From a virus (Duplodnaviria; Heunggongvirae; Uroviricota; Caudoviricetes), in IMG/VR virus record IMGVR_UViG_3300042880_000509: DNA of 64,000 nt. One strand, written 5' to 3'. The position numbers and the translations under genes are program-made. Each line of letters opens with the position of its first letter. The stretch's first letter is position 1. Shown piece by piece: positions 1-21,010 of this stretch. The notes beneath the pieces are model-generated. The model saw nothing but the letters and a program-made list of their open reading frames with translations. It did not search any database and was not told the origin of the DNA.

Positions 1-2175
1 TTTTTTATCTTCAACAACATCAACCATAAAGTCATAAAAGTTTTCTGGAAATTCAACACCTCTAGTAAAATAATCAATCATTTTTTTAACCCTTTTTTCC
101 AATGTTTTGTTTTTATTGGTCTCTTCAGTTTCTTCTAATATTGTAGATCCTATTATTCCTTTAAAACTATAATTTATCGTAAAATCTTCAACATCAAGTT
201 TAATTTTTTCACATAATTCTTCTGAAAAATCTCTTAATACATCTCTAATTTCAAATTGTATTTCCCACCAGCTTTCTAGTTCTCTAACATAGTTACCAAA
301 TAAATTATATGGAGTATCATCATCAGTCATAATTAATTCAACAGTTCCTTCTTTAATAGAATAAACAAATTCATGAACATACCCATAATTTTTTACCGAC
401 AGTAGTTCAAATTTAAAATTATATCCCCCAGTTCCTCTTTGAATGTCGTTAGTGGAAAAAGTTTTTTTAGTAAGATATTTTGTTAATAACATTTCCGGAG
501 TTTCATTAAGAATCTTACCTAATCTTTCAATACCATTAACTCTTTGTATTGCCCTTATTAAACCCTCGTTATCAATAATTTTTAACATAGTTGATTTTAA
601 AGATGAACTTTTTTCTTCAGATTCATTTAATGGTTCACCACCAAACATTTTAGATTCTTTTTCCCTTCTTTTTTTTACACCAGGAAATCTGCGGAATGAC
701 CTTGAACTTTCTTTTTTGATTTGTTCTTTTGCTTTGTCCAATTCATTTTGTTTTACATATTTAATAAATTGACTCTTTTTGAAATTACCAATACCCATGT
801 TATACATCATTGAAATCATTGCATTATACATGTCTTGATCTATATCTGGTGTAATCCCGTCTTTTTCCCAATCATCAAGGATTTTATTTAATTGTTCCTT
901 TGTTTTATCAAGATCGTCTCTTAAAACTTCCTCTGCTTGTTTTTTTGTTATCTTTGTTTTACCAACAATAACTTTATTATACTTTGGAATGAATGGATAG
1001 TCTCCTCCGGTATTACCCATACTCTTGTCCCTAAAAATTGCATGACCATATCCTATTGTTTTGGCACCATCACCGATATCATATGCTGTTAAAACAGGTT
1101 CACCTCTATTTTCTATTGATCCCTCTTCATTTTTTATGTGCTGGACCAGTTTTTCATCGTAATCTCTGATTCTTTTTTTTGTTTGTATTTCAGGTTTCTT
1201 TTCGGTCTCTCCTTTTTTTTCACTACCTCCACCACCAGGAGCTTTTATTTGTTCCAAGTTTGGTTCTTCTTTTGTTAGATCATCATAGATATTATTCATT
1301 TGTGTTATTGAAAGTATCCCAACAAATGAATAAATAACATATTTTAAAATCTTATGTTTAATATTGTCACTAACATTTTTTATCTTATCAAATAATGTTT
1401 TGATATATGATATTGCTTGGTCTTTTGTTTTAACCCAATCAAGAGATTTATCAACATTCTTTTTAACTTCAAATTCCCATTCAGCGTCCGGTTTTTTTTC
1501 TTCATTAAGTATTCTACATAACTCAACAACTCTATCAAGATATCTTAAACTTTCTTCGTTCATATCTCTTGTATATTTTCTAAACCTACCAGGATTTGCT
1601 TTGATTGCCGACTTTGGGAATCTTGTTCCAACTCCTTGTCTTCTTGCCATTTTTAATGTTCTACCATATTCATCAAGATCCTTTTTCTTTCTACCTTGAC
1701 AATGTGCTTTTTGAGAAAATCCTTTTGGGTTATTACAATCAATTGATCTTTTATATTTTTCGGACCACTTCTCTGTTAATTCTTCATCTTTATGTTCTGG
1801 AAATATAAATTCAGAAAATGAACTTTTAGTTTCGGGTGTGACGTTTTTTGCAAGTTCTTTCCATTCATCACAATCTACACCACCACCCATCCATTCCCAA
1901 ACTTTAATATTGTTAGGTAAAACAGATTCAATCTTTTTTTTAATCCTTGAAAATTCACTATGTGGTGTGTGAAGTGCGGTAAAGATTGGAAAGATCTTAA
2001 CTTCATTAAAGGTTGGGAAGGCAACAATATAAAAACTACAAACTGACTTATTCGGTCTTACATGTTTTAAAATTAATTTTATTTTCCTTACATCTCGTAA
2101 AGATTTTTCATGTTGTTCTTGAGTGTATTCCTTATCCTCACCTTCTTTTAATATTTTATTCAAATAATCAAACAT
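1..2175 (-). CDS. Large (>725 aa, C-terminus beyond window) protein with internal GH24 T4-lysozyme-like domain; likely virion-associated cell-wall degrading protein
   Basis: Minus-strand ATG at 2175, open to the window edge. Translation contains EEGSIENRGEPVLTAYDIGDGAKTIGYGHAIF, matching the T4 lysozyme E..D..T-IG-GH catalytic motif, and MISMMYNMGIGNFKKSQF (GH24 helix). N-terminus MFDYLNKILKEGEDKE resembles the shared leader. A Gly-rich linker GGGGSEKKGETEKK follows. Confidence 0.7.
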   Translation of the reverse strand, partial: MFDYLNKILKEGEDKEYTQEQHEKSLRDVRKIKLILKHVRPNKSVCSFYIVAFPTFNEVKIFPIFTALHTPHSEFSRIKKKIESVLPNNIKVWEWMGGGVDCDEWKELAKNVTPETKSSFSEFIFPEHKDEELTEKWSEKYKRSIDCNNPKGFSQKAHCQGRKKKDLDEYGRTLKMARRQGVGTRFPKSAIKANPGRFRKYTRDMNEESLRYLDRVVELCRILNEEKKPDAEWEFEVKKNVDKSLDWVKTKDQAISYIKTLFDKIKNVSDNIKHKILKYVIYSFVGILSITQMNNIYDDLTKEEPNLEQIKAPGGGGSEKKGETEKKPEIQTKKRIRDYDEKLVQHIKNEEGSIENRGEPVLTAYDIGDGAKTIGYGHAIFRDKSMGNTGGDYPFIPKYNKVIVGKTKITKKQAEEVLRDDLDKTKEQLNKILDDWEKDGITPDIDQDMYNAMISMMYNMGIGNFKKSQFIKYVKQNELDKAKEQIKKESSRSFRRFPGVKKRREKESKMFGGEPLNESEEKSSSLKSTMLKIIDNEGLIRAIQRVNGIERLGKILNETPEMLLTKYLTKKTFSTNDIQRGTGGYNFKFELLSVKNYGYVHEFVYSIKEGTVELIMTDDDTPYNLFGNYVRELESWWEIQFEIRDVLRDFSEELCEKIKLDVEDFTINYSFKGIIGSTILEETEETNKNKTLEKRVKKMIDYFTRGVEFPENFYDFMVDVVEDKK

Positions 2176-3742
2176 TATTTTCAACCTTGTTTCTTAATAT
2201 TTTAATAAATTCGTTTTGGATTTCTTTAACCAAATCAACAAAAGATTTTTTAGGTGTGTCACTTGTTTGGGTTCCAAGTTTTCCTAACTTACTCATTGCA
2301 ACTTCTATTTGTTTGTCAGAAAGATTACCCCACTTTAATAATTTTCCTTTAATATCATTTAAAAAAGTATCATCACCTACATATGTTGCAATTGGTAATA
2401 GTTCTTCTGGAACATCATCTAATTTTGGTTCTTTTTTATTTCTATATAGATAATTAATTCCTGATATATTTGTTATACATTTGTGTCCACCACTATTTGC
2501 TTTTATAACATCTAAACCACTTACAGTTATTTTATCAAGTAATACTCTTTGTTTTTCAGATAGACTTCTGTATAGCTTTTCAGATACATTATCAAGTATT
2601 TCAAGTAATTTACTTCCACCATCAACTTTGAATGATGGTCTGTCGCTATATATTGCCATTAAGTCTTTTAATGTAAAACCAACTGAACTATATTCTGTTT
2701 CTAATTCTGCAATTCTTTTAAGATCACCGAATGTTATTTTTAAATTACTTAATTCGTTTGAAAATTTATCTAAAACCTCATCTTTGATTTCACCTAGATC
2801 AACACCTTTTAATGCTCTTTCTTTTTTAAATGGATTACAAGATGCTTGGACCATACCCATTGGCATACCAGTAACTAAAAAGTCTGCGTCCGGATTGTTT
2901 TTAAATGGTGTATAACGATCATAAGCTCCAGCTTTTGATGTACCACCAAAACCATATTGTGTAATTATATTTCCAAAAGTTTCAACACCTTTTTCTTTTC
3001 TACTTTGAATATAGTTTTCTTTATTTTTTGTCATCTGTTCAGGATTTGCGTATCCTTTTTCAGTCGCCTCTTTTCTAATGTTATTTAGAATACTAAGTAG
3101 TGATGGTTGTGAATTTAATACTAAACTATCTAAAAACCCTGGTTTATTTTTATATGCTAAAAGTAACTTGTTAACAACAAGACCCATCATCATTTTATTT
3201 CTTTTTAAACTCTCATCTTTGTTGTAATTAAACAAGTAATTCATAACCATTTCTGGTGTTATATCGTGTTTAACAAAGTCAGCAGAGTCAACCGTTGAGA
3301 TTAATAGAATATCTTCAGATGGAAATATCTCTTTTGGTGATATAGATTGAGATATTGTTTCTACATTTGACCTTGACTGTTTAAAGTTTGTTGATGTATT
3401 TTTTTCAACACCGGCTTGCGTATCGTGGTGATCTGTATGTATGACAAACATTGGTTTACCGTGAGCAAAATCAACAAGAACTGGCATCACATCACCTGAA
3501 GCGTCTGGTTTTTTAATTGCAAATTCTTTATTACCATATTGTATTAATTCAGCATCAACAACTTTAATTCCGTTTTGTTCCAAATAATTTTTCATAGCAA
3601 TTGCTGTTGTCACACCATCTAAATCCATGTGATAATAGATCTTTGCTTTCTTATATCTTCTAGCAAGATCTTTTATTCCTCTGATTCCACTCTCAAGAAG
3701 TAATGTTTCTTCTTTAAGTATTTTTCTAATAAGTTCTTTCAT
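2168..3742 (-). CDS. DHH-family phosphoesterase (524 aa) with shared N-terminal leader
   Basis: Motifs HMDLDGVTTAIA (DHH motif I), VLVDFAHG (II), HTDHHD (III) and a C-terminal SGGH (IV). N-terminus MKELIRKILKEET is the leader. Confidence 0.65.
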   Translation of the reverse strand: MKELIRKILKEETLLLESGIRGIKDLARRYKKAKIYYHMDLDGVTTAIAMKNYLEQNGIKVVDAELIQYGNKEFAIKKPDASGDVMPVLVDFAHGKPMFVIHTDHHDTQAGVEKNTSTNFKQSRSNVETISQSISPKEIFPSEDILLISTVDSADFVKHDITPEMVMNYLFNYNKDESLKRNKMMMGLVVNKLLLAYKNKPGFLDSLVLNSQPSLLSILNNIRKEATEKGYANPEQMTKNKENYIQSRKEKGVETFGNIITQYGFGGTSKAGAYDRYTPFKNNPDADFLVTGMPMGMVQASCNPFKKERALKGVDLGEIKDEVLDKFSNELSNLKITFGDLKRIAELETEYSSVGFTLKDLMAIYSDRPSFKVDGGSKLLEILDNVSEKLYRSLSEKQRVLLDKITVSGLDVIKANSGGHKCITNISGINYLYRNKKEPKLDDVPEELLPIATYVGDDTFLNDIKGKLLKWGNLSDKQIEVAMSKLGKLGTQTSDTPKKSFVDLVKEIQNEFIKILRNKVENNV

Positions 3743-3793
3743 ATAAATAATAAATATAAATTAATATCAAATTGTCTATGATATTGATATTTT

Positions 3794-4117
3794 TTGTATA
3801 TTTGTATTATGATAAAGTTAATATTAAAAAACCTATATAGTTTTGTTTTAGAATCTGAAAATGAAAAACAAGAAAAATTAATCGGTAAATGTGTTAATGG
3901 ACATTTCTATAAATTAAATTATGGTTTTTGTAAGTATTGTAACTCAAAAACTAAAACTAAAGAAGTTTTCATACAACCGGTTGTTGAATCTAAAGTAAAA
4001 TCTAAAAAAGATGAACTTATGGAGTCTCTTAACTATTTGAAAAGTAAATCAAAAAGAACTAAACAAGACAATGAGTCTATATACACTCTTGAGATGGTAT
4101 TGAAAAATATGAAATGA
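3794..4117 (+). CDS. Hypothetical small protein with CxxGH...CxxC zinc-ribbon-like motif
   Basis: Plus-strand ORF fills an otherwise empty gap between two minus-strand genes. Contains CVNGH...CKYC. True start may be the internal Met at 3809. Confidence 0.35.
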   Translation: MYICIMIKLILKNLYSFVLESENEKQEKLIGKCVNGHFYKLNYGFCKYCNSKTKTKEVFIQPVVESKVKSKKDELMESLNYLKSKSKRTKQDNESIYTLEMVLKNMK

Positions 4118-4510
4118 TTACCAGTTTCTTTCTGTGTTGGTATTAATTTCTTCCTGGACTCTTACTAATGTTTTAATTTTATACTTTTTGAACATTCTTT
4201 CACCGATTGCGTATCCTATGTTATATAAACCAATTGCGTTTGTCCCACTATAATAATACACATTAATCCACACGATAAACCTTGGGTATTTATTACCGTA
4301 AATATCAAATCTTGATTCTTCTTTATTAATATCATTAATTTCAATTTTATCAATTAAGTTTGCAGCTTCACAATCATCAAATCCCAACCAACCAGGAAAA
4401 GTATCAGCATCCGGATCTTCCTCACAAATACTTTTAATTTCATCAAAGGTTGATAGAACTAATCTTTTAATTGTGTTTGAGAATTGACTTTCAGTTATTA
4501 GAAATTTCAT
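4118..4510 (-). CDS. Hypothetical protein with shared leader (MKFLITESQ...)
   Basis: 130 aa ORF. The N-terminal 20 aa match the leader seen on at least 10 other proteins. Confidence 0.6.
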   Translation of the reverse strand: MKFLITESQFSNTIKRLVLSTFDEIKSICEEDPDADTFPGWLGFDDCEAANLIDKIEINDINKEESRFDIYGNKYPRFIVWINVYYYSGTNAIGLYNIGYAIGERMFKKYKIKTLVRVQEEINTNTERNW

Positions 4511-4555
4511 ACTAATAAGTATTTCTATTGTTGAATAAATTTTTTATACTTTAGT

Positions 4556-4894
4556 ATGTCTTGTTTTAGTTTATACAATTTAACGATTCCAAATGTGAAA
4601 GTTGATCTTAAAGAAGAAAAGGTTAATAGAATTATTACTAATTTTTTAAGAAAAACTAGTAAAGGAAATATAATCGGTATTCGTTCAATAAAATATAAAC
4701 GAACTGTTCTTTATTCTGAAAATGAACCATTTAAAAATGAATTGATTCTTGAGTGTCATTGTAGAGATGGTTTAGGATTTCCAGGTATGAACACTTTACC
4801 CGAAAATATGCACGCAGTACTTAAACCTATCTTGAAAGATTTTTCTGATATAAAACTAGAGTATCATTACTCAATGTACTATTCTCGTGATTAA
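4556..4894 (+). CDS. Hypothetical protein
   Basis: 112 aa plus-strand ORF in a gap between minus-strand genes. Followed by a perfect 16-nt palindrome. Confidence 0.4.
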   Translation: MSCFSLYNLTIPNVKVDLKEEKVNRIITNFLRKTSKGNIIGIRSIKYKRTVLYSENEPFKNELILECHCRDGLGFPGMNTLPENMHAVLKPILKDFSDIKLEYHYSMYYSRD

Positions 4895-4934
4895 CAGATC
4901 CATATGCTTCACAACCAGCTTTTGATGATTTACA

Positions 4935-4950
4935 ACTTGTGATCACAAGT
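4935..4950. terminator. Perfect 16-nt palindrome ACTTGTGATCACAAGT between convergent genes; possible bidirectional terminator
   Basis: Exact inverted repeat read directly. T-rich sequence follows on the plus strand. Confidence 0.3.
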
Positions 4951-4975
4951 AATGTAATTATTAATATTATTTTTT

Positions 4976-5257
4976 TCATATAAATGATTTAGAGTGTATT
5001 TTATATATTAAATATCCTTCAATGTCACGTATCATCTGATCCACTATTGGATATGATTTATTATGACTCACAACCGATCTTGATGATAAGTACTTCATTC
5101 CGTTAGATAGGGTTTTGATTGATACAATGACACCATTTGAGAAATGTATCCTCTTAGGTGTTCTTTTTGTTATTTCAACTTTTTCTCCTCCGGATAAATA
5201 ATAGTCACCAACTTTACCGTTGTAAATAAACAAATTAGATTCTAAATTTAAATTCAT
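4976..5257 (-). CDS. Hypothetical protein
   Basis: 93 aa ORF with non-repetitive composition. Confidence 0.45.
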   Translation of the reverse strand: MNLNLESNLFIYNGKVGDYYLSGGEKVEITKRTPKRIHFSNGVIVSIKTLSNGMKYLSSRSVVSHNKSYPIVDQMIRDIEGYLIYKIHSKSFI

Positions 5258-5436
5258 TGTTCTGTAGTTATAAAGTCCACTAATCCTGGCATATCTTGTT
5301 TAACAAAGTAAAAACAAAATATAAAACCCATTGAAATATAGGTTAAAGGATTTATTCTATTTATGAAAACTCCTTTGTCTTTGAAGTTTTTTAAAATTTT
5401 GGTTTTGAATAAGAATGATTTAATCTGTTTTTTCAT
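5254..5436 (-). CDS. Hypothetical small protein, possible membrane segment
   Basis: 60 aa ORF whose start overlaps the stop of the downstream gene (ATGA). Has a hydrophobic stretch MGFIFCFYFV. Confidence 0.35.
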   Translation of the reverse strand: MKKQIKSFLFKTKILKNFKDKGVFINRINPLTYISMGFIFCFYFVKQDMPGLVDFITTEQ

Positions 5437-5474
5437 ATTTTTTATTTATACAAAGATAATAAAAAATATGAATC

Positions 5475-6395
5475 CTACATCCTGTCTGAATACATTTCGT
5501 AAAACTTTTCTGGCATTTTTAAATGGTCAAGATTTATAGGTTCTGATTGTCCTTTATTTTCCAATCTTTTTATAAATTCACGGATTCTAGGATAACCGCT
5601 CCAGTTTTGCCATTTTGAAATTATTTTTACATTACTAGGTATTGATTCATACGTTTGTTTTGTTGTTGGGTCAATAAGTCCAACAAAGTCAAAATCATCT
5701 TTAATATGTTTCCAAGCTTGTGTTCCTCCAGCAGAAAAACCACTTACAGATTTTATCTTATAATCATTTATTCCATTTTTAGTTAAAACATTTTTTAAAG
5801 TATCCAATGAATTTTCAAAATTACTATAAACTACATTTCTATCCGAAAAATATTTATCACCACCATTATTTTTCATCCATTTTGCACCATAAGTAGAGCT
5901 AGGATAACCGCCCCAAATAACAGTAATATCATCCGAATCGGGATCGTTCATTTCTATAATATATGTTCCACCATTTATTGTTTTACTTTCTTTTTTTGTT
6001 TCTTGTTTTTTTGGTTCTGATTTTTTATTTTTTTCTTCAGTATCTTTTTCTTCTGTTTTTTTTGAGAGTATTGATTTTAATTTTTCAATATCTTCAGTAT
6101 TCATTGTTCCGGTAACTTCTAGTCCTTCTTCTTCTTGGAATTTTTTTACATTTTTTTCTGTTTCATTTCCGTATTTACCATCAATACCAAATTTACCAAA
6201 ACTATAACCTAATTTATCAAGACCGGCTTGAATTGCAGCAACACCTTTAGTAAATGAGTAATTATTCATTCCTTTTCTATGGATTTCTCCACCGTCAATA
6301 ATTTCATCTAAATCATTTATGTAATCTTCAAATGATTTATTTTCAAGTAATCTTATCAATCTAGAAGTTTGACTTTCAGTTAGTATTATTTTCAT
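5475..6395 (-). CDS. Peptidoglycan-binding domain plus serine hydrolase (alpha/beta, G-F-S-A-G nucleophile elbow) with shared leader
   Basis: PG_binding_1-like GLDKLGYSFGKFGIDGKYGNETEKNVKKFQEEEGLEVTG. Lys/Glu-rich linker. C-terminal domain with GFSAGG (GxSxG). N-terminus MKIILTESQTSRLIRLLE. Confidence 0.65.
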   Translation of the reverse strand: MKIILTESQTSRLIRLLENKSFEDYINDLDEIIDGGEIHRKGMNNYSFTKGVAAIQAGLDKLGYSFGKFGIDGKYGNETEKNVKKFQEEEGLEVTGTMNTEDIEKLKSILSKKTEEKDTEEKNKKSEPKKQETKKESKTINGGTYIIEMNDPDSDDITVIWGGYPSSTYGAKWMKNNGGDKYFSDRNVVYSNFENSLDTLKNVLTKNGINDYKIKSVSGFSAGGTQAWKHIKDDFDFVGLIDPTTKQTYESIPSNVKIISKWQNWSGYPRIREFIKRLENKGQSEPINLDHLKMPEKFYEMYSDRM

Positions 6396-6397
6396 AG

Positions 6398-7936
6398 TTA
6401 TGGTTGCATTATTGTTGAAACATATTCATATGTTTCTTTTGGTAATTTATCTTTAAGGTCTTTAAATGATGTCTTGTTTTTTAATGCGTCAAAATAAACT
6501 TGTTTACCTGACTTTGGTGGGTATTGATACCATGCTCCACTATTATATGCGGCAATAGCAAGATCTAATCTTCCTGGGAATCTTCTAACATTTTCTGACA
6601 TTAGTTTTACATAAGCAGGTAAAGCGTCTTCAACCTTACAAGGATCACCTTTACCATATGAAGGCCAAGTTGTTGGCATAAATTGTGCGATACCTCTTGC
6701 TCCGGCTGTAGATGTATTTTTACAACTTATAACAGATGGTGAAAAAGCAGATTCGGCATATAATTGTCTCATGGCATATTTTATTGGGATTCCACCACTT
6801 TCAACCTCTGATTTAAATTTATTAAAATTAACGCCTTGTATATTTTTAAATTGTTCTTCTAAGTTTGATGGTATACTTCTTATTTTCACACCTGGATTTG
6901 TTATAACAAAAGATGTATTTTCTTCTGAACCACCTGACCCTTTTTTAACATCTTCAATTTGTCTACCAGAATATGTTTTAAATATCTTTTGGGTTAATTT
7001 ATCTTGGGTTTTTAAATCAAAAATTCCACTTTCGTTTAATCCATTATTTTTTTGGAATTTAGTAATTGCAACTTTAGTATTTCCATCAAGAATCCCATTA
7101 ATTTCTATTGAGTTATCTTTTGTTACGATAAACAATATTACTTGCATCATTCTTATTTTTTTGTCAGAACTATTTTGGTCAACAACTTCATTAGTTTTTA
7201 AAAATTCAAAGTATCTTTCAAAAAACTTTTTAAACTTTTCTTTTTTATCGTCATTAGTATTACCAGTTGTTTGGGTTTGGTTTGTCTTTTTTGTTTCTTT
7301 GATATAAGTCTCAACATGATCTTTAATTGTTTTGTGGTTTGATGGTCCTATGTGTATTCCATCTCCTGCCGCCCAATTACCATCACCACTTACCGTTGGT
7401 ATTATAATAGCATTTTTAATTTGTGAAGAAAGATCTTTTTGTAATTGGATCATTCTTTCTCTTCCTTTATACATACAATTTTGATCACAAAGGACTCTAC
7501 CATCTGGATATTTAGTTGGTTTTAAATTCTTATCTGTCATAACAGAACCCGCTTCATATCCTAAAAAAACATAAGCCTGACCACCTTGTTCATTAACAAC
7601 ATCTACCATTTTTTGGATGTTTGTTACGGCATTTGATAAATTGGTTCCTACCCAAAAAGCATCATTTGTTCCGCCGTATATGAATACTTTATCGTATTTT
7701 TTTTCTTTTAGTTTTGGTAACATATTACTCAACATCCAGTCTGTTTTTTTTCCTCCTTCAACAACATGAGTAACATTCCAGTCTGGGTGTGCTTTTGATA
7801 ACAAATAATTCCAGGTTTTTCCTCCGGTACTTAAACTGTCGCCAACAAACATGACATTTTCTTTAACTCTATCGTCATTTTCAGTTATTAAATTAACAAG
7901 AAATTTGAATTGGTTTTCAGAGACAAGTATTTTCAT
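6398..7936 (-). CDS. Three-domain cell-wall enzyme: SGNH/GDSL hydrolase, peptidoglycan-binding domain and SLT lytic transglycosylase, with shared leader
   Basis: FVGDSLS (GDS motif) and GGTND (SGNH block III). PG_binding_1-like VAITKFQKNNGLNESG. C-terminal ES...GARGIAQFMPTTW...AAYNSG (SLT family 1). N-terminus MKILVSENQFKFLVNLITE. Confidence 0.75.
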   Translation of the reverse strand: MKILVSENQFKFLVNLITENDDRVKENVMFVGDSLSTGGKTWNYLLSKAHPDWNVTHVVEGGKKTDWMLSNMLPKLKEKKYDKVFIYGGTNDAFWVGTNLSNAVTNIQKMVDVVNEQGGQAYVFLGYEAGSVMTDKNLKPTKYPDGRVLCDQNCMYKGRERMIQLQKDLSSQIKNAIIIPTVSGDGNWAAGDGIHIGPSNHKTIKDHVETYIKETKKTNQTQTTGNTNDDKKEKFKKFFERYFEFLKTNEVVDQNSSDKKIRMMQVILFIVTKDNSIEINGILDGNTKVAITKFQKNNGLNESGIFDLKTQDKLTQKIFKTYSGRQIEDVKKGSGGSEENTSFVITNPGVKIRSIPSNLEEQFKNIQGVNFNKFKSEVESGGIPIKYAMRQLYAESAFSPSVISCKNTSTAGARGIAQFMPTTWPSYGKGDPCKVEDALPAYVKLMSENVRRFPGRLDLAIAAYNSGAWYQYPPKSGKQVYFDALKNKTSFKDLKDKLPKETYEYVSTIMQP

Positions 7937-7985
7937 TATATTGTGTTATTAACAATAAATACTATAAAAAATATAATGTTAAAGT

Positions 7986-8183
7986 TTAGTGATTCAATTT
8001 TACTTTCCAGAAGTTGAAAAGTTCTTTATTGTTATAGTTATTTTTTTTACTGTCCCAACCACACATGTGGCAAAGGTATGGATGTTGATCTTCTTTTTCT
8101 TTACTCCAAGAATGACCACATTTACATTTGATCTTCTCACCAAAAAGTTTTTCAGCTTGTTTTTCTGTGATTAGAATTTTCAT
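7986..8183 (-). CDS. Small Cys/His-rich protein with shared leader
   Basis: MKILITEKQAEKL leader. CKCGH...CHMCGW suggests a zinc-binding fold. Confidence 0.5.
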   Translation of the reverse strand: MKILITEKQAEKLFGEKIKCKCGHSWSKEKEDQHPYLCHMCGWDSKKNNYNNKELFNFWKVKLNH

Positions 8184-9034
8184 AGGTTGTTAAAATTTCC
8201 TTTTTTGATTTTTTTATCGTCCAAAATAAAACATTTGTTTTCAACATCAATTTTATAACTTTTGTTTGGAAATGAAATATAATCACCGGTTGTAATATCA
8301 ACCAACATAATGTTTTCAACCTTCATACCAAGATAATTCTTTGGTAGTGGTGTGTTTAATATTAATTTTCCATCTTCTTCTGACATACCAGTTAATTCCT
8401 TTACTTGGAAACTCTTTCCGTTAATCTCCAAATCAATTCCGTGATCTCTATCTTGTTTAGATCCTGGAGGAAAATATTTGATATCGTATTTAGAGTTTTT
8501 TAATTTGTCAATAACATATTTTTCAGTGATACTTCCTTTATTGTAGGTATTCATATTAGCCCTAATAAGTTCTTTTAAAATAGGACCTTCATTTAATAAC
8601 CTTTCTTTATTATCAACTAACCATTTATAAAAATCTTTTGGTGTTTCACCTTTCTTTTCTTTTTTGAATATGTTTAGCAATCTATCTTTAACAAATTTGT
8701 GACCACCAAAATAATTTAAAATTGACCAACTTGTTAGTTCGTTAAGTGGATGTATGTCAATAATACCGCGTTTACTTTTATCTTCGTTCCAATCCAAATT
8801 ATCTTTATAAATTTCAAACAATAATTTATTTAAAAATTTAGCAAACCTACTATTATTTTGGATAAATTCAATATTTAAATTTCCTGGGTTGTTATCTTCT
8901 GAATCCACAATATTAATATAACCTTCTAATGATTTATCATTATTATTTTGATTAAAGTCAATTTCCATTTGATTTTCTGTTAGTCCCATCAAACTCAAAT
9001 TTCTTTTTATTTCGTTAATTATTGTTTTTTCCAT
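8180..9034 (-). CDS. Hypothetical protein (284 aa)
   Basis: Long ORF in coding-like sequence. Start overlaps the upstream gene stop (ATGA), suggesting translational coupling with the paralog array. Confidence 0.55.
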   Translation of the reverse strand: MEKTIINEIKRNLSLMGLTENQMEIDFNQNNNDKSLEGYINIVDSEDNNPGNLNIEFIQNNSRFAKFLNKLLFEIYKDNLDWNEDKSKRGIIDIHPLNELTSWSILNYFGGHKFVKDRLLNIFKKEKKGETPKDFYKWLVDNKERLLNEGPILKELIRANMNTYNKGSITEKYVIDKLKNSKYDIKYFPPGSKQDRDHGIDLEINGKSFQVKELTGMSEEDGKLILNTPLPKNYLGMKVENIMLVDITTGDYISFPNKSYKIDVENKCFILDDKKIKKGNFNNL

Positions 9035-9705
9035 TATTCAAAATTCTCCTCTTTTAATATTATTGGTTCACCTTTTGTAGTATTTCTTTCAACCCATACA
9101 TGATATAAATAACCATTATTATTTTGATTGTATAATTTTAATACTCCGTTACCACCGGCGTCTTCATCCCAACTATCGGTTTCTAATACTTCACTAATCA
9201 TCATTATTACGTCATAAGCAAAAAATCTGGTGTCTTGACGATTTAATTCCTTATTATTATATGTTATTGTACAGTCAAAATTATTTTCGTGTCCAGAATA
9301 ATCAATTATAAGTTCTTCAAGTTCCATATCTTCCATAAATTTTGATAGTGAATAATAGTCTCTTAATTGTCTCCAATCAAATTTCCTATTATCTTTTGAT
9401 TCTGTATATGTAAAATATTTTGGTATTAACATTATTTCTCTTTTTTTTGGATAAACACTAAAATCAACCCAGTATGCTGGTTCGTGTTTATCTGTTCTAT
9501 TATAAAGTTCTTCACCATAATTGGTTAGTATTGAATGAAAAAACTTTTTAAATATATCAATAATTGTAAATCTATGAGTTCTTTCTGTTACCCAATTTTC
9601 AGGAAAATGCTCAATATCACCAATCAACATATCAATATTTGTTCCTATTGGCCCAATTGGATTAAGGTATGCCATTAGTGCTCTAAATGTTCTTTTTTTT
9701 AACAT
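9034..9705 (-). CDS. Tandem-paralog family member 1 (223 aa), most divergent copy
   Basis: N-terminus MLKKRTFRALMAYLNPIG. Shares the YPKK..I and W-x-DAGGNG motifs with the neighbouring copies. Confidence 0.6.
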   Translation of the reverse strand: MLKKRTFRALMAYLNPIGPIGTNIDMLIGDIEHFPENWVTERTHRFTIIDIFKKFFHSILTNYGEELYNRTDKHEPAYWVDFSVYPKKREIMLIPKYFTYTESKDNRKFDWRQLRDYYSLSKFMEDMELEELIIDYSGHENNFDCTITYNNKELNRQDTRFFAYDVIMMISEVLETDSWDEDAGGNGVLKLYNQNNNGYLYHVWVERNTTKGEPIILKEENFE

Positions 9706-9710
9706 ATTAT

Positions 9711-10388
9711 TTAAGGTAAAGAATCTTCTGTTATTTCAATATCAATTTCATTTGAATCATCGTCCTCAGTATTCCACTCGTGATTAACACTTATTTCATC
9801 TTTTGTAAATACAATATTTCCTTGTGATCCTTCATTTATTTCCCAGCCCCCATATTCTTCGAGTAAATCATAGCAAATATGTTCAATATCTTCATCTATT
9901 TGTCCATTCTTATTTTTAGATGTATAATCACTTTCAATGTATCCGGAATCACCACCACCATTATAACTTATAGTCATATCTTCAATTCCTTCGTGTTCTA
10001 AGAATTTTCTTACTTCCATAAATGTAGAATACATACCATCATCTTCTTCATAATCATCAATATATACTTCATATCCACTATCTGATGTGCCGTATGATGT
10101 AAACCTAACTTGGTTAAAAACAATTTTATTTTCAAACGGATAAATCTCTCCATCAACATAAAAATAATCACTTGCACTTTGTACAGAGCCAGGACCTTCA
10201 TCGTATAATTCATTGGTATATAGTTCAAGAATTGTTTGGAGATGTGATTCAAAATTTGATGTAATATCAACACCGTAATAAATATTTATATCTTCAATAT
10301 GAGTTTCACTTATTGTAATTTCAAAAGGTATTGATTCCTTTTTAAACCCTTTCAGGTATGCCATTAACATTTTAAATTTTTTTTTCAT
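9711..10388 (-). CDS. Tandem-paralog family member 2 (225 aa)
   Basis: MKKKFKMLMAYLKGFKK. Contains IYPFENKIVF, NGGGDSGYIES, GGWEINEGSQGNIVF and HEWNTED. Confidence 0.65.
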   Translation of the reverse strand: MKKKFKMLMAYLKGFKKESIPFEITISETHIEDINIYYGVDITSNFESHLQTILELYTNELYDEGPGSVQSASDYFYVDGEIYPFENKIVFNQVRFTSYGTSDSGYEVYIDDYEEDDGMYSTFMEVRKFLEHEGIEDMTISYNGGGDSGYIESDYTSKNKNGQIDEDIEHICYDLLEEYGGWEINEGSQGNIVFTKDEISVNHEWNTEDDDSNEIDIEITEDSLP

Positions 10389-11086
10389 TATTGGTAAGTA
10401 TCTAAATTTATTTCTAATCTCATATCAGTTGGTTCGTAATCTTGATCTTTGGTAAAACCTTTTACAAAAATACTGTCACCCCAAACTATAATGTTTCCTT
10501 CAGCACCGGCTTCCATATTCCAAAACCTACTATTAGTTATTTTTTGCATAAGTTCATTAGTAATCATCCATAAATCTTCACTCATTTGATTGGTAATTTT
10601 AATTAGTTGTCCATCAAGTTCAAGATCGTAAATATGACCATCATCCCAACGACCATAAAAATCAAATTCAAATTTTACTAGGTCTTCATTATCTTCATAA
10701 AATGATAATATTCTTTCTTTACTTTCTTTTGACATATCACCATAATATGTATCATATTTAAATCTTTCTCTATTTTCAACTTTACATGAAGATGTAAAAA
10801 TAATTTTATTTTCAAATGGATGTATTTCAATATTCAAATACCAATATTCGTCAATATCTAAATCAAGATAGTTATAAAAATCATCCATGTGATTTTTAAT
10901 TAATTCTTCTATGAATTTTTCAAAATGTGATGGTAATAATAGTCTTTTTGTATTTCTTTGTTCATTTGTCACATCAAATCTACCCCAATCTTCAATGTGA
11001 GTCCTATCCATTACAATAGAAGTATCAACAAGATGTCCTTTGAGTCCTCTTAAAAAAGCAAAAAATAATTTTAATCTTTGTTTCAT
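10388..11086 (-). CDS. Tandem-paralog family member 3 (232 aa)
   Basis: MKQRLKLFFAFLRGLKG. Contains IHPFENKIIF and WNMEAGAEGNIIVWG. Shares 1 nt with the neighbouring gene. Confidence 0.65.
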   Translation of the reverse strand: MKQRLKLFFAFLRGLKGHLVDTSIVMDRTHIEDWGRFDVTNEQRNTKRLLLPSHFEKFIEELIKNHMDDFYNYLDLDIDEYWYLNIEIHPFENKIIFTSSCKVENRERFKYDTYYGDMSKESKERILSFYEDNEDLVKFEFDFYGRWDDGHIYDLELDGQLIKITNQMSEDLWMITNELMQKITNSRFWNMEAGAEGNIIVWGDSIFVKGFTKDQDYEPTDMRLEINLDTYQ

Positions 11087-11772
11087 TCTTCTATATTGTC
11101 CGGTGTTACATTTATATTCATTTCTGTCATCTCATGATCTTTGGATTTTGTAAAAAATTCCATTCTTATTGATTTATCTTTCTCAACGTAAATTGTACCG
11201 TAACTACCAGGTCCATCAGTCCACCATCTGTCAAGAATATTTGTCATTAATTGATCTGTTAACTCAATATAATTTATATCGTCATTTATAAAAATATAAA
11301 AATCAAGGTTAACATCTATTTGATCATAATTACCATTAAATTCAAAATTAAATTTATCTTTATCTTTTAGATCTTCATTAAATATTGTATCAACTAAATC
11401 AAGAGTAGTTGTTGATAATTGTGTATTTTTTCTATTTAAACTAAATGTTTGTTGGCCATCATATTCGCTTACTATCTCACATTCGCTTTGAAAATTTATT
11501 CTATTTTGTTTTGGGTAAACATATACAAGTAATGTCCACCATTCACTTTCATCATAATCGTTTTCTCTGTGAAACTTTTGCATATATGATTTTAATATGT
11601 CCTCAAATGTCTCTTGTAATTTTGTTGGTAATTCTATTTCTTTACCTTCTTTGGTTGTAAATTTTAAATCCCAACTTTCCATATGGTTATAGTCAAAATT
11701 GATATATGTATCCAATACATCTGTTTTAAATGCTCTAAAATATGCAAGTAATAATTTTAATTTTTGTTTCAT
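11083..11772 (-). CDS. Tandem-paralog family member 4 (229 aa)
   Basis: MKQKLKLLLAYFRAFKT. Contains VYPKQNRINF and WWTDGPGSYGTIYVE. 4-nt overlap with the neighbouring gene. Confidence 0.65.
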   Translation of the reverse strand: MKQKLKLLLAYFRAFKTDVLDTYINFDYNHMESWDLKFTTKEGKEIELPTKLQETFEDILKSYMQKFHRENDYDESEWWTLLVYVYPKQNRINFQSECEIVSEYDGQQTFSLNRKNTQLSTTTLDLVDTIFNEDLKDKDKFNFEFNGNYDQIDVNLDFYIFINDDINYIELTDQLMTNILDRWWTDGPGSYGTIYVEKDKSIRMEFFTKSKDHEMTEMNINVTPDNIEE

Positions 11773-12437
11773 TCTTCCAGGTCATCTTCTTTAATTTCAA
11801 TTGTATCATGACAATCAACCATTTCTCTCATATTCCATTCGTGAGAAATTACAATTTCCAAATTATTATTTAATTCAATTGTTCCGACAGATCCGTCATC
11901 TATCTCCCAACCACCGTAAGCGTTTTCTAGATTATCATAAAGTGTGTTCCAAATTAATTTATTGTCATCACTATCTGAATGCCAGGTAATGTTTGAACTT
12001 TCACCATCAACTGTTATTGAATCGATATCTCCGCTGTCTCCACCACCACTATATCTTGCTTCAATTATTTCAACACCAGTTGTTTTAAAATAATCTTCTA
12101 ATTCTGGGTTTTTTAATTTTCTTTCATAAGTTTCAGCTTGTGATGTATATTCTTCTGCTTTCATTGAAACCACAATTTTTTTATCTTTCGGGTATATGTC
12201 GGCAATTACATTATAGTAATCGCTTTCACTCCAGCAATCTATATCATTTATTTGATCTTCTATTGACTCTAAAATATCAGTAATAAGGTTAACAATATTT
12301 TTAGGTAGTGATTGTATTTCAACACCAAAAGGCCATTGCCATTCAGTATTACCATCATAATTGTTCCATATAACAGATATTTTGTCCTTTTTGAGTTTAG
12401 ACAAAAAAGACATTAACATTCTAAATTTTCTTTTCAT
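11769..12437 (-). CDS. Tandem-paralog family member 5 (222 aa)
   Basis: MKRKFRMLMSFLSKLKK. Contains IYPKDKKIVV, YSGGGDSGDIDS, GGWEIDDGSVGTIEL and SHEWNMRE. 4-nt overlap with the neighbouring gene. Confidence 0.65.
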   Translation of the reverse strand: MKRKFRMLMSFLSKLKKDKISVIWNNYDGNTEWQWPFGVEIQSLPKNIVNLITDILESIEDQINDIDCWSESDYYNVIADIYPKDKKIVVSMKAEEYTSQAETYERKLKNPELEDYFKTTGVEIIEARYSGGGDSGDIDSITVDGESSNITWHSDSDDNKLIWNTLYDNLENAYGGWEIDDGSVGTIELNNNLEIVISHEWNMREMVDCHDTIEIKEDDLEE

Positions 12438-12866: not shown

Positions 12867-13559
12867 ATGAAAAACCTTATTAGGAAAATATTAAAAGAAG
12901 AGACATCTGACAGAGCAAAAGAAAAACTTGTAAAGCCATATCTTTCAAAATTTGAAAATGTTGGTTATGTTGAAAACGATGATATACCATATTTTGAATC
13001 TAATAGTTTAAATGAGAATAGTAATCCAGTCAAAAACTTTTGGTTTAAAAAATGGACCAAACAAAAAGAAAAGGGTGAGAATCCATCAATTTATGATATT
13101 GAAAAGTTAGGGTTTTCTAATAAAAGAAATGAGATTGTTCAATACTTTGTAGATTTTATGGGTTACGGTGATGGAAACACAAGATCTAACGCTATTAAAC
13201 AATATCTCTTAAATCATACTTTTACGGAGAAAGAAATTACCGAAATGGATAACTTTGATCAGGGTAAAATTCAAATAAGATTTAATAAAGTTCAATTTTT
13301 AGAAAGTCAAAATAATTACGGTAAAAACTTTTTAGATTTAGATTGCGAATTTGTTGTTTTAAGTGGTTCATTTTATAATAGTGAAGAAGGTGAAACTTAT
13401 AACTTTTCAAGTGACGATAATCCATTTGATGATTTTGTAACATACTTTGAGTTTAAAGAAGAAATAGAACAAGTTGTTGAGAGTTTTGTACATAAAGTTG
13501 TTGAGTTGTTTGGTTTTAATATAAACAATGATTTTGATTATATCAGTGTAAAATGGTAA
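12867..13559 (+). CDS. Hypothetical protein with shared leader (MKNLIRKILKEET)
   Basis: 230 aa. Leader nearly identical to that of the DHH protein. Stop overlaps the next start (TAATG). Confidence 0.6.
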   Translation: MKNLIRKILKEETSDRAKEKLVKPYLSKFENVGYVENDDIPYFESNSLNENSNPVKNFWFKKWTKQKEKGENPSIYDIEKLGFSNKRNEIVQYFVDFMGYGDGNTRSNAIKQYLLNHTFTEKEITEMDNFDQGKIQIRFNKVQFLESQNNYGKNFLDLDCEFVVLSGSFYNSEEGETYNFSSDDNPFDDFVTYFEFKEEIEQVVESFVHKVVELFGFNINNDFDYISVKW

Positions 13560-14134
13560 TGAAAAATTTAATTAAAAAAATATTAAAGGAAGAGGAAGGT
13601 AATAAGGTTGTAAAAAACTATGTTACTAAAATGTTTAAAAAACAAGTTGATTCTGGTTTAACACCACGCATACCATATGAAGATTTACGAAAAAAAAAAC
13701 TTACCCAACATATTGAGCTAATTGATAAATGGTATTTTGAATTTTTGGAAAATCATTATGGTGTTAGTAGTGGTTTTGAAAAAGCTAAAACTTTATATGA
13801 AGAAGCGGTTAAGACTGTTACTGAAAAGGATTTAAAAAGTGTTGACATTGATACTGGCCAAGACAAATTTTTGGTATCAATTCCCTGGATAGAGTTTTAT
13901 GATATAGATTCTGAAAGAAGAAATGTTGTTTTTGGTTTTGCGATAATTGACTGTTATTTAGAAACTGATAATGGAATGAAAACATATGAAGAAATGTTAG
14001 ATAATACGTTTCCAGATTACATGTGGAATGATGTAACTGATATTTTAAGACAACAAATTGAGGAATATGTTCAAATTAGGGGTTACGATTTTGGTCTTGA
14101 TATTCTTGTTTCAGAATCGGTTTGGTCTGATTAA
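13559..14134 (+). CDS. Hypothetical protein with shared leader (MKNLIKKILKEEE)
   Basis: Start taken at the second ATG (13559), overlapping the upstream stop. Followed by a hairpin terminator. Confidence 0.6.
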   Translation: MKNLIKKILKEEEGNKVVKNYVTKMFKKQVDSGLTPRIPYEDLRKKKLTQHIELIDKWYFEFLENHYGVSSGFEKAKTLYEEAVKTVTEKDLKSVDIDTGQDKFLVSIPWIEFYDIDSERRNVVFGFAIIDCYLETDNGMKTYEEMLDNTFPDYMWNDVTDILRQQIEEYVQIRGYDFGLDILVSESVWSD

Positions 14135-18275: not shown

Positions 18276-19874
18276 ATGATACATTCACGTAAACTAATAT
18301 TATTTTCATCAATATCTTTGATGTTCATATTCCTATTAACTAAAACATTAATTTTATTAAATTTAGTTAGTCCTAGCGACATCACAAGGGTTATTGAAAT
18401 GTTTTGTTTTTTAACATTTTCACCATTATTTTATTTTTTAATGAAAAAACAAAATGTGGACTTGAAAAGTGGTTTATTAAAACAAATTAAAGATAGTGAA
18501 GAATTTATTGATTCCGCAACAATTGTTTCTGTTGCCGATAAGTATGGTAAAATCACATACGTTAATAAAAAATTTGAAGAAGTTTCTGGGTGGTCTTTAG
18601 ATGAGGTTAAAGGTATGGATCATAGTGTTGTTAACTCTGGCTTGCAACCTGATGGGTATTGGGGAAAGATGTATGAGACTGTAATGAAAGGTGAGATATG
18701 GAATGATGTTGTTACAAATAAAGGAAAGTCGGGTGAACTATATTATGTTGATACATACATCAAAGCAAAATTTGATAAGAAGGGTAAGTTAGATGGGTTT
18801 TCATCCATCAGACAAGATGTTACAGAACTTAAAAGAAAAGAAATGGAAATCCGTAATAGAATGAACGCAATAAATAAATCTAATGCTGTTATTGAGTTTG
18901 ATTTAGAAGGAAACATCATTTTTGCTAATGAATTGTTTTTAAATACTATGGGTTATTCTTCGCCGGATGAAGTAATTGGGAAACACCACAGAATTTTTAT
19001 TGATGAAGATCACTTAAAAAGTGAGGAATATTCTATTTTTTGGAAAAAACTAAATGATGGTATATTATTTACTGGTGAAATTACTAGAGTCAAAAAAGAC
19101 GGGTCTTTAGTTTATTTACAAGCAACTTACAACCCAATTATTGGTGTGGATGGTAAGATTTATCGTGTTATGAAAATAGCAACAGACGTAACCAATTCTT
19201 ATGAACAAAAGAAAGAGATAGAAAAGAAAAATACCTATTTAGAACACGCTGCTAAAATATTAAGACACGATATGCACTCTGGTATTAACACATATATGCC
19301 AAGAGGGTTAAGTTCTTTAGAAAGAAGGTTAAGTTCTGAAGATATTACATCGTTAAAGATTGAAGCTCCAATTAGAATGATTAAAGAAGGATTAAAACAT
19401 TCTCAAAAAGTATATAAAGGAGTTTATGAATTTACCAATCTAGTTAAAAAAGATGTTGTTTTAAATAAAACTGAATGTAATTTAAAATCAATTTTATCTG
19501 ATTACCTATCATCAACAGCATATTTAAGTCAAGTAATTATTGAAGACTTACCTACAATAGAAGTAAACGAAGCGTTATTTTGTACCGCAGTTGATAATTT
19601 AATTAGAAACGGTTTAAAATATAACGATTCAGATACCAAATTTGTTAAAATTTATTCCGATGAGAATAATATTTACATACAAGATAACGGTAGAGGAATC
19701 ACACAAGAAGATTTTGATCACTTATCTAAACCATACACAAGAAAAGAAGGGCAAAAAGAATCTGGTACTGGTTTAGGTTTAAATATTTGCGTTGCTATTT
19801 TAGAAGAGCACGGGTTTAATATTACTTGTGAGAAAAATGAAATAGGAACAAAAATGAAAATAAAAATAAAATAA
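18276..19874 (+). CDS. Membrane-anchored sensor histidine kinase with two PAS domains
   Basis: Two N-terminal hydrophobic helices. PAS 1: ATIVSVADKYGKITYVNKKFEEVSGWS...DGFSSIRQDVTE. PAS 2: AVIEFDLEGNIIFANELF...DGKIYRVMKIATDVT. H-box region AAKILRHDMHSG. HATPase_c N-box NLIRNGLKYN, G1 DNGRGI, G2 GTGLGLNI. Confidence 0.8.
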   Translation: MIHSRKLILFSSISLMFIFLLTKTLILLNLVSPSDITRVIEMFCFLTFSPLFYFLMKKQNVDLKSGLLKQIKDSEEFIDSATIVSVADKYGKITYVNKKFEEVSGWSLDEVKGMDHSVVNSGLQPDGYWGKMYETVMKGEIWNDVVTNKGKSGELYYVDTYIKAKFDKKGKLDGFSSIRQDVTELKRKEMEIRNRMNAINKSNAVIEFDLEGNIIFANELFLNTMGYSSPDEVIGKHHRIFIDEDHLKSEEYSIFWKKLNDGILFTGEITRVKKDGSLVYLQATYNPIIGVDGKIYRVMKIATDVTNSYEQKKEIEKKNTYLEHAAKILRHDMHSGINTYMPRGLSSLERRLSSEDITSLKIEAPIRMIKEGLKHSQKVYKGVYEFTNLVKKDVVLNKTECNLKSILSDYLSSTAYLSQVIIEDLPTIEVNEALFCTAVDNLIRNGLKYNDSDTKFVKIYSDENNIYIQDNGRGITQEDFDHLSKPYTRKEGQKESGTGLGLNICVAILEEHGFNITCEKNEIGTKMKIKIK

Positions 19875-19891
19875 AAAACAAAAAAAGAAAA

Positions 19892-20329
19892 ATGATTGAT
19901 TCAATTTTATTGGTGGATGATGAGGATTTATTCCATTTGGTGTTTGAGGATGCTTGTTCGTTATTAGACATAAGTTTGTCTTTAAATGCGTTAAATAGTT
20001 CTGACGAGGCAGCAAAACTATTTCAAAAATGGTTCCAGGATGGTGACAATAATGATAAACCTGAATGTGTGTTTGTTGACTTAAACATAATTGGTAGTTC
20101 TTTTGATGGTATAGAGTTAATTAGAAAAGTTAATTTTGAATATGGTAATCACGTAGTTATTGGTATCATATCATCATCAAACGAACCGGAAGAACAAGCA
20201 AAAGCGCTCCAGGCTGGTGCTCAATTCTGGATTATTAAATCAGATGATATTGAACCTCGTTTAGAAGAGTTCAGAAAAGATTATGATGGGTATAAAAATA
20301 GAACAGCACCATTTAAAGTATATAAATGA
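19892..20329 (+). CDS. Stand-alone response-regulator receiver (REC) domain protein
   Basis: ILLVDDE (acidic pocket), VFVDLNIIG (phospho-acceptor Asp), GIISSS (conserved S/T) and FWIIKS (conserved Lys). No output domain. Confidence 0.75.
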   Translation: MIDSILLVDDEDLFHLVFEDACSLLDISLSLNALNSSDEAAKLFQKWFQDGDNNDKPECVFVDLNIIGSSFDGIELIRKVNFEYGNHVVIGIISSSNEPEEQAKALQAGAQFWIIKSDDIEPRLEEFRKDYDGYKNRTAPFKVYK

Positions 20330-21000: not shown

Positions 21001-21010
21001 AATAAAAACT

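Follow-up and report, generated by a model that had tools for sequence, protein, structure and literature searches.

The capsid-targeting sequences (CTS) of bacteriophage T4 are N-terminal propeptides of 10-20 residues that target the prohead core, are sufficient to package foreign proteins, and are removed by the protease gp21, which cuts after Glu (PMC9026906, PMC5694885). Here, we describe a short leader at the N-termini of unrelated proteins, cell-wall enzymes among them, that are encoded in 64,000 nucleotides of viral DNA (IMG/VR record IMGVR_UViG_3300042880_000509; this whole stretch is called the window in the following). As in the T4 internal proteins IPI, IPII, and IPIII and the gp24 propeptide, a short extension with an MK start and a hydrophobic-x-Glu end (ITE, IAE, and LRE in T4) is placed on unrelated proteins, the lineage encodes a gp21-family S77 protease, Gp23, and Portal_T4, and the cargo loci are hypervariable. 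The leader differs from the T4 system in having no sequence identity to MKTYQEFIAE and in marking at least 66 families, compared to a handful in T4. Murein hydrolases are among the tagged proteins here, whereas T4 carries its own on the baseplate (gp5), and it is from the sequences that we infer packaging and cleavage.

The ejection proteins of phiKZ and SPN3US are comparable in that many head-internal proteins are delivered to the host and propeptides are cut after Glu, and the SPN3US paralogues gp53 and gp54 have identical N-termini (PMC5694885). However, the propeptides of these phages are mostly longer than 100 amino acids (aa) with an A/S/G-x-E site, they belong to another head lineage and protease subfamily, and no common short tag is spread across unrelated families there. 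T7 gp16 (phrog_342), an SLT lytic transglycosylase, is kept inside the capsid until its ejection and assists passage through the murein, but it is a 1318-aa podovirus core/channel protein with an N-terminal SLT domain and no removable tag, whereas the SLT domain of the window is a small C-terminal module behind SGNH and PG_binding_1 domains. In sequence and gene context, the wall enzymes described here are similar to muralytic proteins of the internal or ejected kind, for which T7 gp16 is an example, and are not of the tail, tape-measure, or baseplate type. The best reading is a much expanded, sequence-distinct CTS-like tagging system that includes wall-degrading cargo, the CTS principle as such being already known from T4. 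With a probability of about 0.5, argued from sequence and from the T4 analogy, we propose that the leader is a T4-type capsid-targeting propeptide, that the wall enzymes are virion cargo, and that the left-end cluster is a variable cargo locus.

The leader occurs in three classes, namely class A (MKIIITESQ[YFL][KNR]x[LI][LI]E[EN]), class B (MKxLIRKILKEE), and class C (MNLQEQISRIQSMMG). With a hidden Markov model (HMM) of class A, five window proteins scored 25-31 bits and the rest at most 5 bits; four of the five are encoded within 4118..8183, and the match was confined to residues 1-15 in every case. Together with a virus-specific DNA pattern, these scores show that the leader, which an earlier note on this DNA had pointed out, is real and not due to chance. 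That note had also counted a leader in five of six consecutive minus-strand genes at the left end, which skipped three small open reading frames (ORFs). Positions 1..8183 hold nine minus-strand and two plus-strand genes, the minus-strand set includes small untagged ORFs of 50, 93, and 60 aa (4827..5436), and five clear leaders and one weak leader are found among the nine. Class B marks the genes at 2168..3742, 12867, 13559, and 52166 in the following list.

1..2175, minus strand: multi-module GH24 protein, first 725 codons of 790-791 aa (full length from the contigs L001 and L002), with a weak leader (N-terminus MFDYLNKILKEGED, from the full-length copies)
2168..3742, minus strand: DHH/DHHA1-type phosphoesterase with a class-B leader (MKELIRKILKEETLLLE, 3692..3742), a non-wall enzyme
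4118..4510, minus strand: 130-aa protein with a class-A leader (MKFLITESQ.., leader HMM 25.6 bits)
5475..6395, minus strand: PG_binding_1 plus esterase protein with a class-A leader (6342..6395), assigned by Pfam, motifs, and AlphaFold
6398..7936, minus strand: SGNH plus PG_binding_1 plus SLT protein with a class-A leader (7880..7936), assigned by Pfam and motifs
7986..8183, minus strand: 65-aa Cys4 zinc-ribbon-like protein with a class-A leader
8180..9034, minus strand: 284-aa protein with a class-C-like N-terminus (..NEIKRNLSLMGLTE), syntenic in relatives
12867..13559 and 13559..14134, plus strand: two class-B tagged genes
52166..52600, minus strand: class-B tagged SET-domain protein, preceded by ATATTTATTATT
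52612..53847, minus strand: class-A tagged HExxH protein (411 aa, AHELMHRF), preceded by ATATTTATTATT
59008..60516, minus strand: acidic 502-aa protein whose N-terminus joins both motifs (MKKLSKITESFLIKRIKRLIKEEE)

The 284-aa protein had the next-best leader HMM score, which was weak, and a PDB sequence search with it gave no match. The protein encoded at 4118..4510 matched neither Pfam nor PHROG families. The HExxH protein, whose gene adjoins the tagged SET gene, had no family match and has 16 relatives among the fetched loci.

Using a degenerate DNA pattern for MKIIITESQ, we found more than 120 loci in IMG/VR, on contigs of up to 295 kb, and a single match in 596 Gb of bacterial and archaeal genomes, on a 3-kb contig. 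This sole prokaryotic match (CAZGNP010000068.1, L215), a low-GC contig in an 'Aquiluna' metagenome-assembled genome with a DNA methyltransferase gene and the start of a DHH-like gene, is almost certainly a mis-binned phage fragment. A tblastn search of GenBank phages with the bare 21-aa leader yielded no match at E <= 10, and neither the leader string nor a comparable tag of huge or jumbo phages turned up in the searchable literature. About 1.1 Mb of leader-bearing loci encode at least 66 unrelated families, as defined by BLAST, with the leader, and orthologues of one family can differ in leader class (A, B, or C; 22 class A and 2 class B in the DHH-like family). Most of the 69 representative tagged proteins in a Pfam census had no match. 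The wall-related matches were PG_binding_1 (5), Phage_lysozyme (3), GDSL (2), SLT, Hydrolase_2, Phage_lysozyme2, and GH19, and the others included a sigma-70 family protein, SET, ParB_N, and Pterin_4a. Wall enzymes are the largest identifiable class of tagged proteins, but because the census shows unrelated families too, the tag is not wall-specific. Also the tagged genes between the wall enzymes of the window, for the DHH phosphodiesterase and proteins without assignment, are not wall-related, and the wall-digesting apparatus that the earlier note had proposed is not supported as a dedicated one, given the same tag on so many families. PHROG searches with the small tagged proteins and the head-module neighbours gave no informative match.

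Conservation of the leader is limited to residues 1-16 and follows amino-acid classes out to residue 16. Candidate conservation at the DNA level was rejected on the mixed synonymous codons, and the DNA upstream of leader genes is not conserved as a block. As synonymous codons are mixed, with Leu13 using all six Leu codons and variation at about background level, the leader is, on this codon evidence, selected as a peptide. The contrary explanation, in which the shared N-terminus is a nucleic-acid feature (an AU-rich initiation region in a host without Shine-Dalgarno sequences, or a gene-shuffling recombination cassette) and the peptide is functionless, would account for the strongly A/U-rich leader codons, for a hyperplastic locus with fusions and domain swaps, and for host-type promoters that suggest Bacteroidota. 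It is nevertheless highly improbable in view of the synonymous-site variation, and leader classes with different DNA replace each other on orthologues, while the major structural genes have no leader. In both AlphaFold (AF2) models, the leader was detached or unstructured, appearing as a low-confidence helix with a predicted local distance difference test (pLDDT) score of about 40 and no packing on the fold; it comprises a short hydrophobic strand followed by an amphipathic helix.

No tagged family is more widespread than the DHH-like one, for which at least 3994 metagenomic homologues were found. Its N-terminal extension measures between 7 aa (MRKLLNE) and 20 aa and always ends in [LIM][LI]xE directly before a conserved SGIR. 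In all tagged proteins together, [LIM]xE occurs 1.76 times per leader versus 0.24 times in control segments (7-fold), and a second such site is most frequent at E15/E16, with Ser or Asn as the next residue. In the T4 record, the sites lie after MKTYQEFIAE (before A) in IPII/III, after ..STITE (before A) in IPI, and after MAKINELLRE (before S) in gp24. In sequence terms, the hydrophobic-x-Glu junction of the leader is of the form of T4 gp21 prohead protease sites. By analogy, we infer that the leader is functionally like the T4 CTS, without being a family member by sequence. On the uncultured phage sequences LR745206 and LR756502 (634-642 kb), the same DHH orthologue stands behind another leader, MK[YH]LKxYxxFxE, which is closer to the T4 sequence and recurs on many genes of the respective loci L127 (LR745206.1) and L126 (LR756502.1). 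There, a gp5-like baseplate hub is encoded about 6-11 kb away from the DHH orthologue, and a search with the hub of the 634-kb phage gave matches on other contigs but none in the lineage of the window.

As for the DHH-like protein itself (2168..3742), the DxD, DHH, and GGH motifs are invariant, in agreement with a DHH fold, and a PDB sequence search gave no match. Its fold is nearest to pAp/pGpG phosphodiesterases, and some homologues of the family carry a C-terminal SET or GNAT fusion. The protein may degrade signalling or nano-oligonucleotides early in infection.

Head genes were identified on relatives of the window. Homologues of gp20 and gp21 were found in two leader-bearing loci by phmmer with the T4 proteins: L040 has a tandem pair of class-A genes in the interval from portal to protease, which is the position of the T4 core genes 67 and 68, and L035 has a tagged gene immediately next to that of the large terminase. 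Searching IMG/VR with the protease of the L040/L035 type returned more than 600 relatives, one of which (89% identity) is encoded on the 257-kb contig 3300042455_001086 in locus L143. The same contig holds L050, the syntenic counterpart of the left-end cluster, with identities of 79% for the 284-aa protein, 71% for the 65-aa protein, and 57% for the GH24 protein. L143 encodes Terminase_6N (T4-type TerL), Portal_T4 with inteins, Peptidase_S77, a scaffold-like protein, and Gp23 (246 bits). Its Peptidase_S77 (80 bits) is 35% identical to T4 gp21 and has the ELNHP and SSRG motifs; the nearest cultured proteases are those of Microcystis phage Mel-JY01 and Flavobacterium phage immuto. In this phage group, inteins or homing endonuclease domains (Intein_splicing, HNH_3, LAGLIDADG_3) split the genes for the large terminase and the portal (15..3020 and 4085..8107 in L143, 22..2730 in L040), and a GIY-YIG gene lies just before the protease gene.

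No tail or baseplate genes were found on either side of the left-end cluster or in the 10 kb outside the left end of the window. The latter region, where the earlier note had considered such genes, was checked on L001 and L002, which carry small ORFs, further tagged proteins, ParB_N, a glycosyltransferase, and a metallophosphatase there. This bears on the possibility that the leader targets a site outside the head (the lumen of the tail tube or baseplate, the inner membrane, or an intracellular phage compartment or complex) or is just a generic oligomerisation helix. An amphipathic helix behind a short hydrophobic strand would suit such a role, myovirus wall enzymes are usually found on the tail, some of the tagged proteins seem to be embedded in a membrane, and on the esterase module described below the leader alternates with a Sec signal. 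We consider it unlikely, since besides the absence of tail and baseplate genes near the cluster, the nearest formal analogue of the tag is the T4 CTS and gp24 propeptide, tagged genes fall between portal and protease genes in the informative contexts, and the diversity of the cargo suggests a high-capacity compartment. By the T4 analogy, too, the inside of the head would be a more likely destination than the tail tip.

In the window, the sequence (A/G)TATTTAT(T/A)(A/G)TT was found at most 25 nucleotides from the start codon in all six heads of tagged transcription units, and the TATTTAT core is also present upstream of the scaffold, protease, and other head genes in L143. Across all loci, the TATTTAT motif precedes 48% of the tagged genes versus 27% of the other genes (p = 1.6e-8), and the host-type motif TAnnTTTG is depleted before tagged genes; of 82 protease genes, 67 have the TATTTAT motif upstream. 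This suggests two temporal promoter classes, with TAnnTTTG for untagged genes and (A/G)TATTTAT(T/A) for tagged and head genes, and it weakly hints at late co-expression of the tagged genes with the head genes. The lysis block apparently uses the same TATTTAT motif.

The wall enzymes and the lysis genes of the window comprise the following parts.

1681..1785, minus strand: conserved motif SIDCxxPKGFSQxAHCxGRKK in the GH24 protein
655..1092, minus strand: GH24 lysozyme domain (Pfam Phage_lysozyme, aa 362-507)
211..630 and 1..210, minus strand: two C-terminal modules of the GH24 protein, separate leader-tagged genes in relatives
6093..6245, minus strand: PG_binding_1 of the 5475..6395 protein (Pfam, 47.6 bits), followed by a low-complexity linker
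5478..5984, minus strand: minimal alpha/beta-hydrolase esterase module (Ser221/Asp242/His291)
7346..7855, minus strand: SGNH esterase domain (Lipase_GDSL_2)
6995..7111, minus strand: PG_binding_1 of the 6398..7936 protein (Pfam)
6533..6778, minus strand: SLT lytic transglycosylase domain (Pfam)
7955..7961: TATTTAT promoter-like motif before the 6398..7936 gene
20326..21000, plus strand: holin-like gene with two C-terminal transmembrane (TM) segments
21011..21835, plus strand: untagged endolysin with PG_binding_1 and Glyco_hydro_19 (GH19; Pfam), directly after the holin-like gene

The three wall enzymes that the earlier note had recognised at the left end were confirmed by Pfam matches and intact catalytic motifs. 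For the GH24 domain, the Phage_lysozyme score was 69.9 bits (Pfam cut-off 22.3), the catalytic residues Glu, Asp, and Thr are intact (NEEG..YDIGDG..KTIGYGH), and the nearest PDB sequences are the P21 and RrrD lysozymes. The designation of this protein as giant did not hold, as it has only 790-791 aa in L001/L002, of which about 65 aa fall outside the window. An internal TM or signal-anchor-release segment was ruled out by too low hydrophobicity. In the 6398..7936 protein, Lipase_GDSL_2 scored 31.8 bits, slightly below the cut-off of 32.9, and the L001 orthologue is recorded as PF13472; the SGNH blocks I (GDS), II (G), III (GxND), and V (DxxH) were all found. Its SLT domain scored 43.6 bits (cut-off 21.3), with the ES, GxxQ, and AYNxG motifs intact as YAES, GIAQF, and AYNSG. 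PHROG matches of this protein were to endolysins and, through the SLT domain, to 'internal virion protein with endolysin domain' (phrog_342, 1.2e-15). O-acetyl groups on N-acetylmuramic acid (MurNAc) block lytic transglycosylases, which need a free MurNAc C6-OH, and SGNH esterases such as Ape1 remove these groups. The SGNH-SLT fusion would fit this biochemistry, with de-O-acetylation preceding cleavage; in contrast to Ape1, which is coupled to a lytic transglycosylase, both predicted activities are fused here in one phage protein with PG_binding_1.

The genes at 20326..21835 are a canonical holin-endolysin lysis cassette, whose GH19 endolysin is 69% identical to one in LR745206. As this endolysin is untagged and lies behind the holin-like gene with its two TM segments, the earlier note was right in setting the left-end enzymes apart from it, and the view that the tagged wall enzymes form a distinct set is supported. 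The tagged wall enzymes have no Sec signal peptide or TM anchor, and no TM protein flanks them. This lack of an export signal would also be expected if they were accessory lysis enzymes that stay in the cytoplasm and reach the murein via holin lesions, the leader possibly being an inhibitory or stabilising propeptide. In favour of such a role, the combination of PG_binding_1 with a catalytic domain is that of modular Gram-negative endolysins and is found in the untagged GH19 enzyme of the window itself, the upstream motif is of the late type, the PHROG labels are mostly 'endolysin', and the T4 lysozyme gene e adjoins ipII/ipIII. However, a complete untagged pair of holin-like protein and endolysin is already present, the same tag is found on the DHH phosphodiesterase, SET, a sigma factor, ParB_N, and many proteins without assignment, the junction is of the protease-site type in a lineage with an S77 protease, and tagged genes lie within the head module. 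We therefore regard an accessory lysis function as improbable.

The module behind PG_binding_1 in the 5475..6395 protein had been proposed in the earlier note to be a serine hydrolase with a GFSAG motif, and this is confirmed: Ser221 (in GFSxG), Asp242, and His291 are invariant in 20 homologues, and the AlphaFold model of aa 138-306 (pLDDT >90) has an alpha/beta-hydrolase fold with a GxSxG elbow and the canonical order Ser-Asp-His. The module has the motifs WGG..GFSxG..LIDPST..H and belongs to no Pfam family. It is rare: a set of 1.84 billion proteins contained 143 representatives at 50% identity. Among 84 members, only wall-active or wall-binding domains were found as partners, namely PG_binding_1 (20), VanY (12), M23 (8), NlpC/P60 (3), amidases, M15 peptidases, and Phage_lysozyme2. 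The N-terminus of the homologues (P0013-P0166) is either a leader variant or a classical signal peptide or anchor. Because homologous envelope enzymes carry one or the other, the leader takes the place of a Sec signal. From these sequence features, the module is a candidate for a new cell-wall esterase family. A related arrangement is known from mycobacteriophage Lysin B, a lysis-cassette enzyme in which a PG_binding_1-like domain is combined with a cutinase-like serine esterase that cuts the mycolyl-arabinogalactan ester, but the host is Gram-negative here and the esterase module of the window is without a Pfam family.

The left-end locus is HYPERPLASTIC. The syntenic genes encode leader-SGNH-PG_binding_1-SLT in the window, leader-PG_binding_1-GH19 in L050, and leader-SGNH-PG_binding_1-Phage_lysozyme2 in L094, so that the leader and PG_binding_1 are kept and the catalytic domain is swapped. 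In a metagenome homologue, leader-SGNH-PG_binding_1 is followed by the alpha/beta esterase. Modules that L050 and L108 encode as separate tagged genes are joined end to end in the 790-aa GH24 protein, which retains decayed internal leaders (MLKIIDNE, STILEETEE). The motif SIDCxxPKGFSQxAHCxGRKK (>80% identity across loci) and the 65-aa zinc-ribbon protein adjoin in several relatives and form one fused protein in L108 (8674..9711).

If the leader is a capsid-targeting propeptide, as we propose, its 7-20 residues would bind the prohead core or scaffold, and the attached protein would be enclosed in the head. The gp21-family (S77) prohead protease would then cut after the hydrophobic-x-Glu junction and free the mature protein, which would leave the virion at infection. 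The GH24 muramidase, the SGNH-SLT fusion, and the peptidoglycan-anchored alpha/beta esterase would open the murein locally at entry, and the untagged GH19 endolysin and the holin would perform lysis at the end of the cycle. Core binding and packaging, cleavage, ejection, and enzyme action on the wall at entry are thus all presumed steps.

Several points weigh against this proposal. The leader has only MK and the hydrophobic-x-Glu pattern in common with T4 MKTYQEFIAE, without sequence similarity beyond that, and we found no cultured phage with the leader. The window itself is without head genes, and the link to them runs via a relative whose cluster proteins are 57-79% identical. The enrichment of the TATTTAT motif before tagged genes (48% versus 27%) is modest. 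T4 head cargo enters the cytoplasm, and the entry lysozyme of T4 is on the baseplate (gp5); to our knowledge, no myovirus has head-packaged murein hydrolases. PG_binding_1 plus a catalytic domain is the standard endolysin architecture of Gram-negative jumbo phages. At least 66 tagged families exceed the cargo types of any capsid that we know of. Finally, there are tagged proteins that look as if they had multiple TM segments: some class-A tagged proteins (10..630 in L009 and its family, 4281..5291 in L066) resemble multi-pass membrane or glycine-rich hydrophobic proteins. Such proteins would be candidates for ejected pores or conduits if the tag does serve capsid loading, and would otherwise favour a membrane destination.

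The window has a G+C content of about 29% and tightly packed, mostly minus-strand genes. A megablast search of GenBank phages with positions 1..9000 gave no match, tblastn of the SLT and HExxH proteins against phages gave a weak fragment or nothing, and an IMG/VR search for loci related via the SLT protein yielded no confirmed relative. Identical copies of window proteins were found on freshwater metagenome contigs, one of them from a Lake Mendota series sample. L001, a 40.7-kb contig that reaches 10 kb past the left end of the window, is near-identical, as is L002. The Bacteroidetes-type -7 promoter motif TAnnTTTG (TATATTTGTA, TATCTTTGTA) lies upstream of many untagged window genes, and a TonB_C protein and several lipoproteins are encoded.

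3809, 15426, 31037, 38339, 41544, 50159, 55600, and 56111: examples of TAnnTTTG upstream of genes

Because of these promoters, the TonB_C protein, and the lipoproteins, the host is probably a member of the Bacteroidota. The sequence is best explained as that of an uncultured freshwater T4-like jumbo phage. A giant eukaryotic virus, as suggested by the low GC content, the SET domain, and 64 kb without structural genes, was excluded by the T4-type head genes of the lineage, the Bacteroidetes-type promoters, TonB_C, the lipoproteins, and the murein enzymes.

Further features of the window were noted. The holin-like gene and the GH19 endolysin share one co-oriented block (18276..21835, plus strand) with genes for a PAS histidine kinase and a response-regulator receiver protein, which immediately precede them and may represent a phage two-component system beside lysis genes. 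Five tandem paralogues of 222-232 aa (9034..12437, minus strand) have faint DUF6878 matches, a conserved N-terminus of their own (MKxKxKMLMAYLxxxK), and a C-terminal GGWEI/GG..G motif. The paralogues at 43171..44310 and 54542..55603 (both minus strand) have the common motif ..GS(N/G)TKWCT.. and a short leader-tagged relative in L050 (3701..4195); these families match only PHROGs of unknown function.

Independently of the tag, the analysis defines a rare, unannotated alpha/beta-hydrolase module as a candidate new class of cell-wall esterases, and the locus shows catalytic wall-degrading domains swapped behind a constant leader and binding domain. Should the tag serve for capsid loading, sequences would directly reveal which proteins are packaged by an abundant group of uncultured phages, and T4-type loading of internal proteins would have been scaled from a few anti-restriction proteins to dozens of enzymes, including wall-degrading ones. 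The tag would also be short, natural, and interchangeable, and thus suited for packaging foreign proteins into phage heads. In its widest form, which we offer only tentatively and hold to be somewhat less probable, the proposal is that an abundant freshwater clade of T4-like phages of about 250 kb loads at least 60 unrelated families into the capsid via a protease-removable tag of 7-20 residues and delivers them at infection. The cargo might then comprise murein hydrolases, a sigma factor, a SET methyltransferase, the DHH phosphodiesterase, a metalloprotease-like protein, and membrane proteins. Should this hold, no phage would be known with a larger injected 'effector arsenal', and the wall-degrading enzymes in it would be the first in a myovirus to be delivered from the head.

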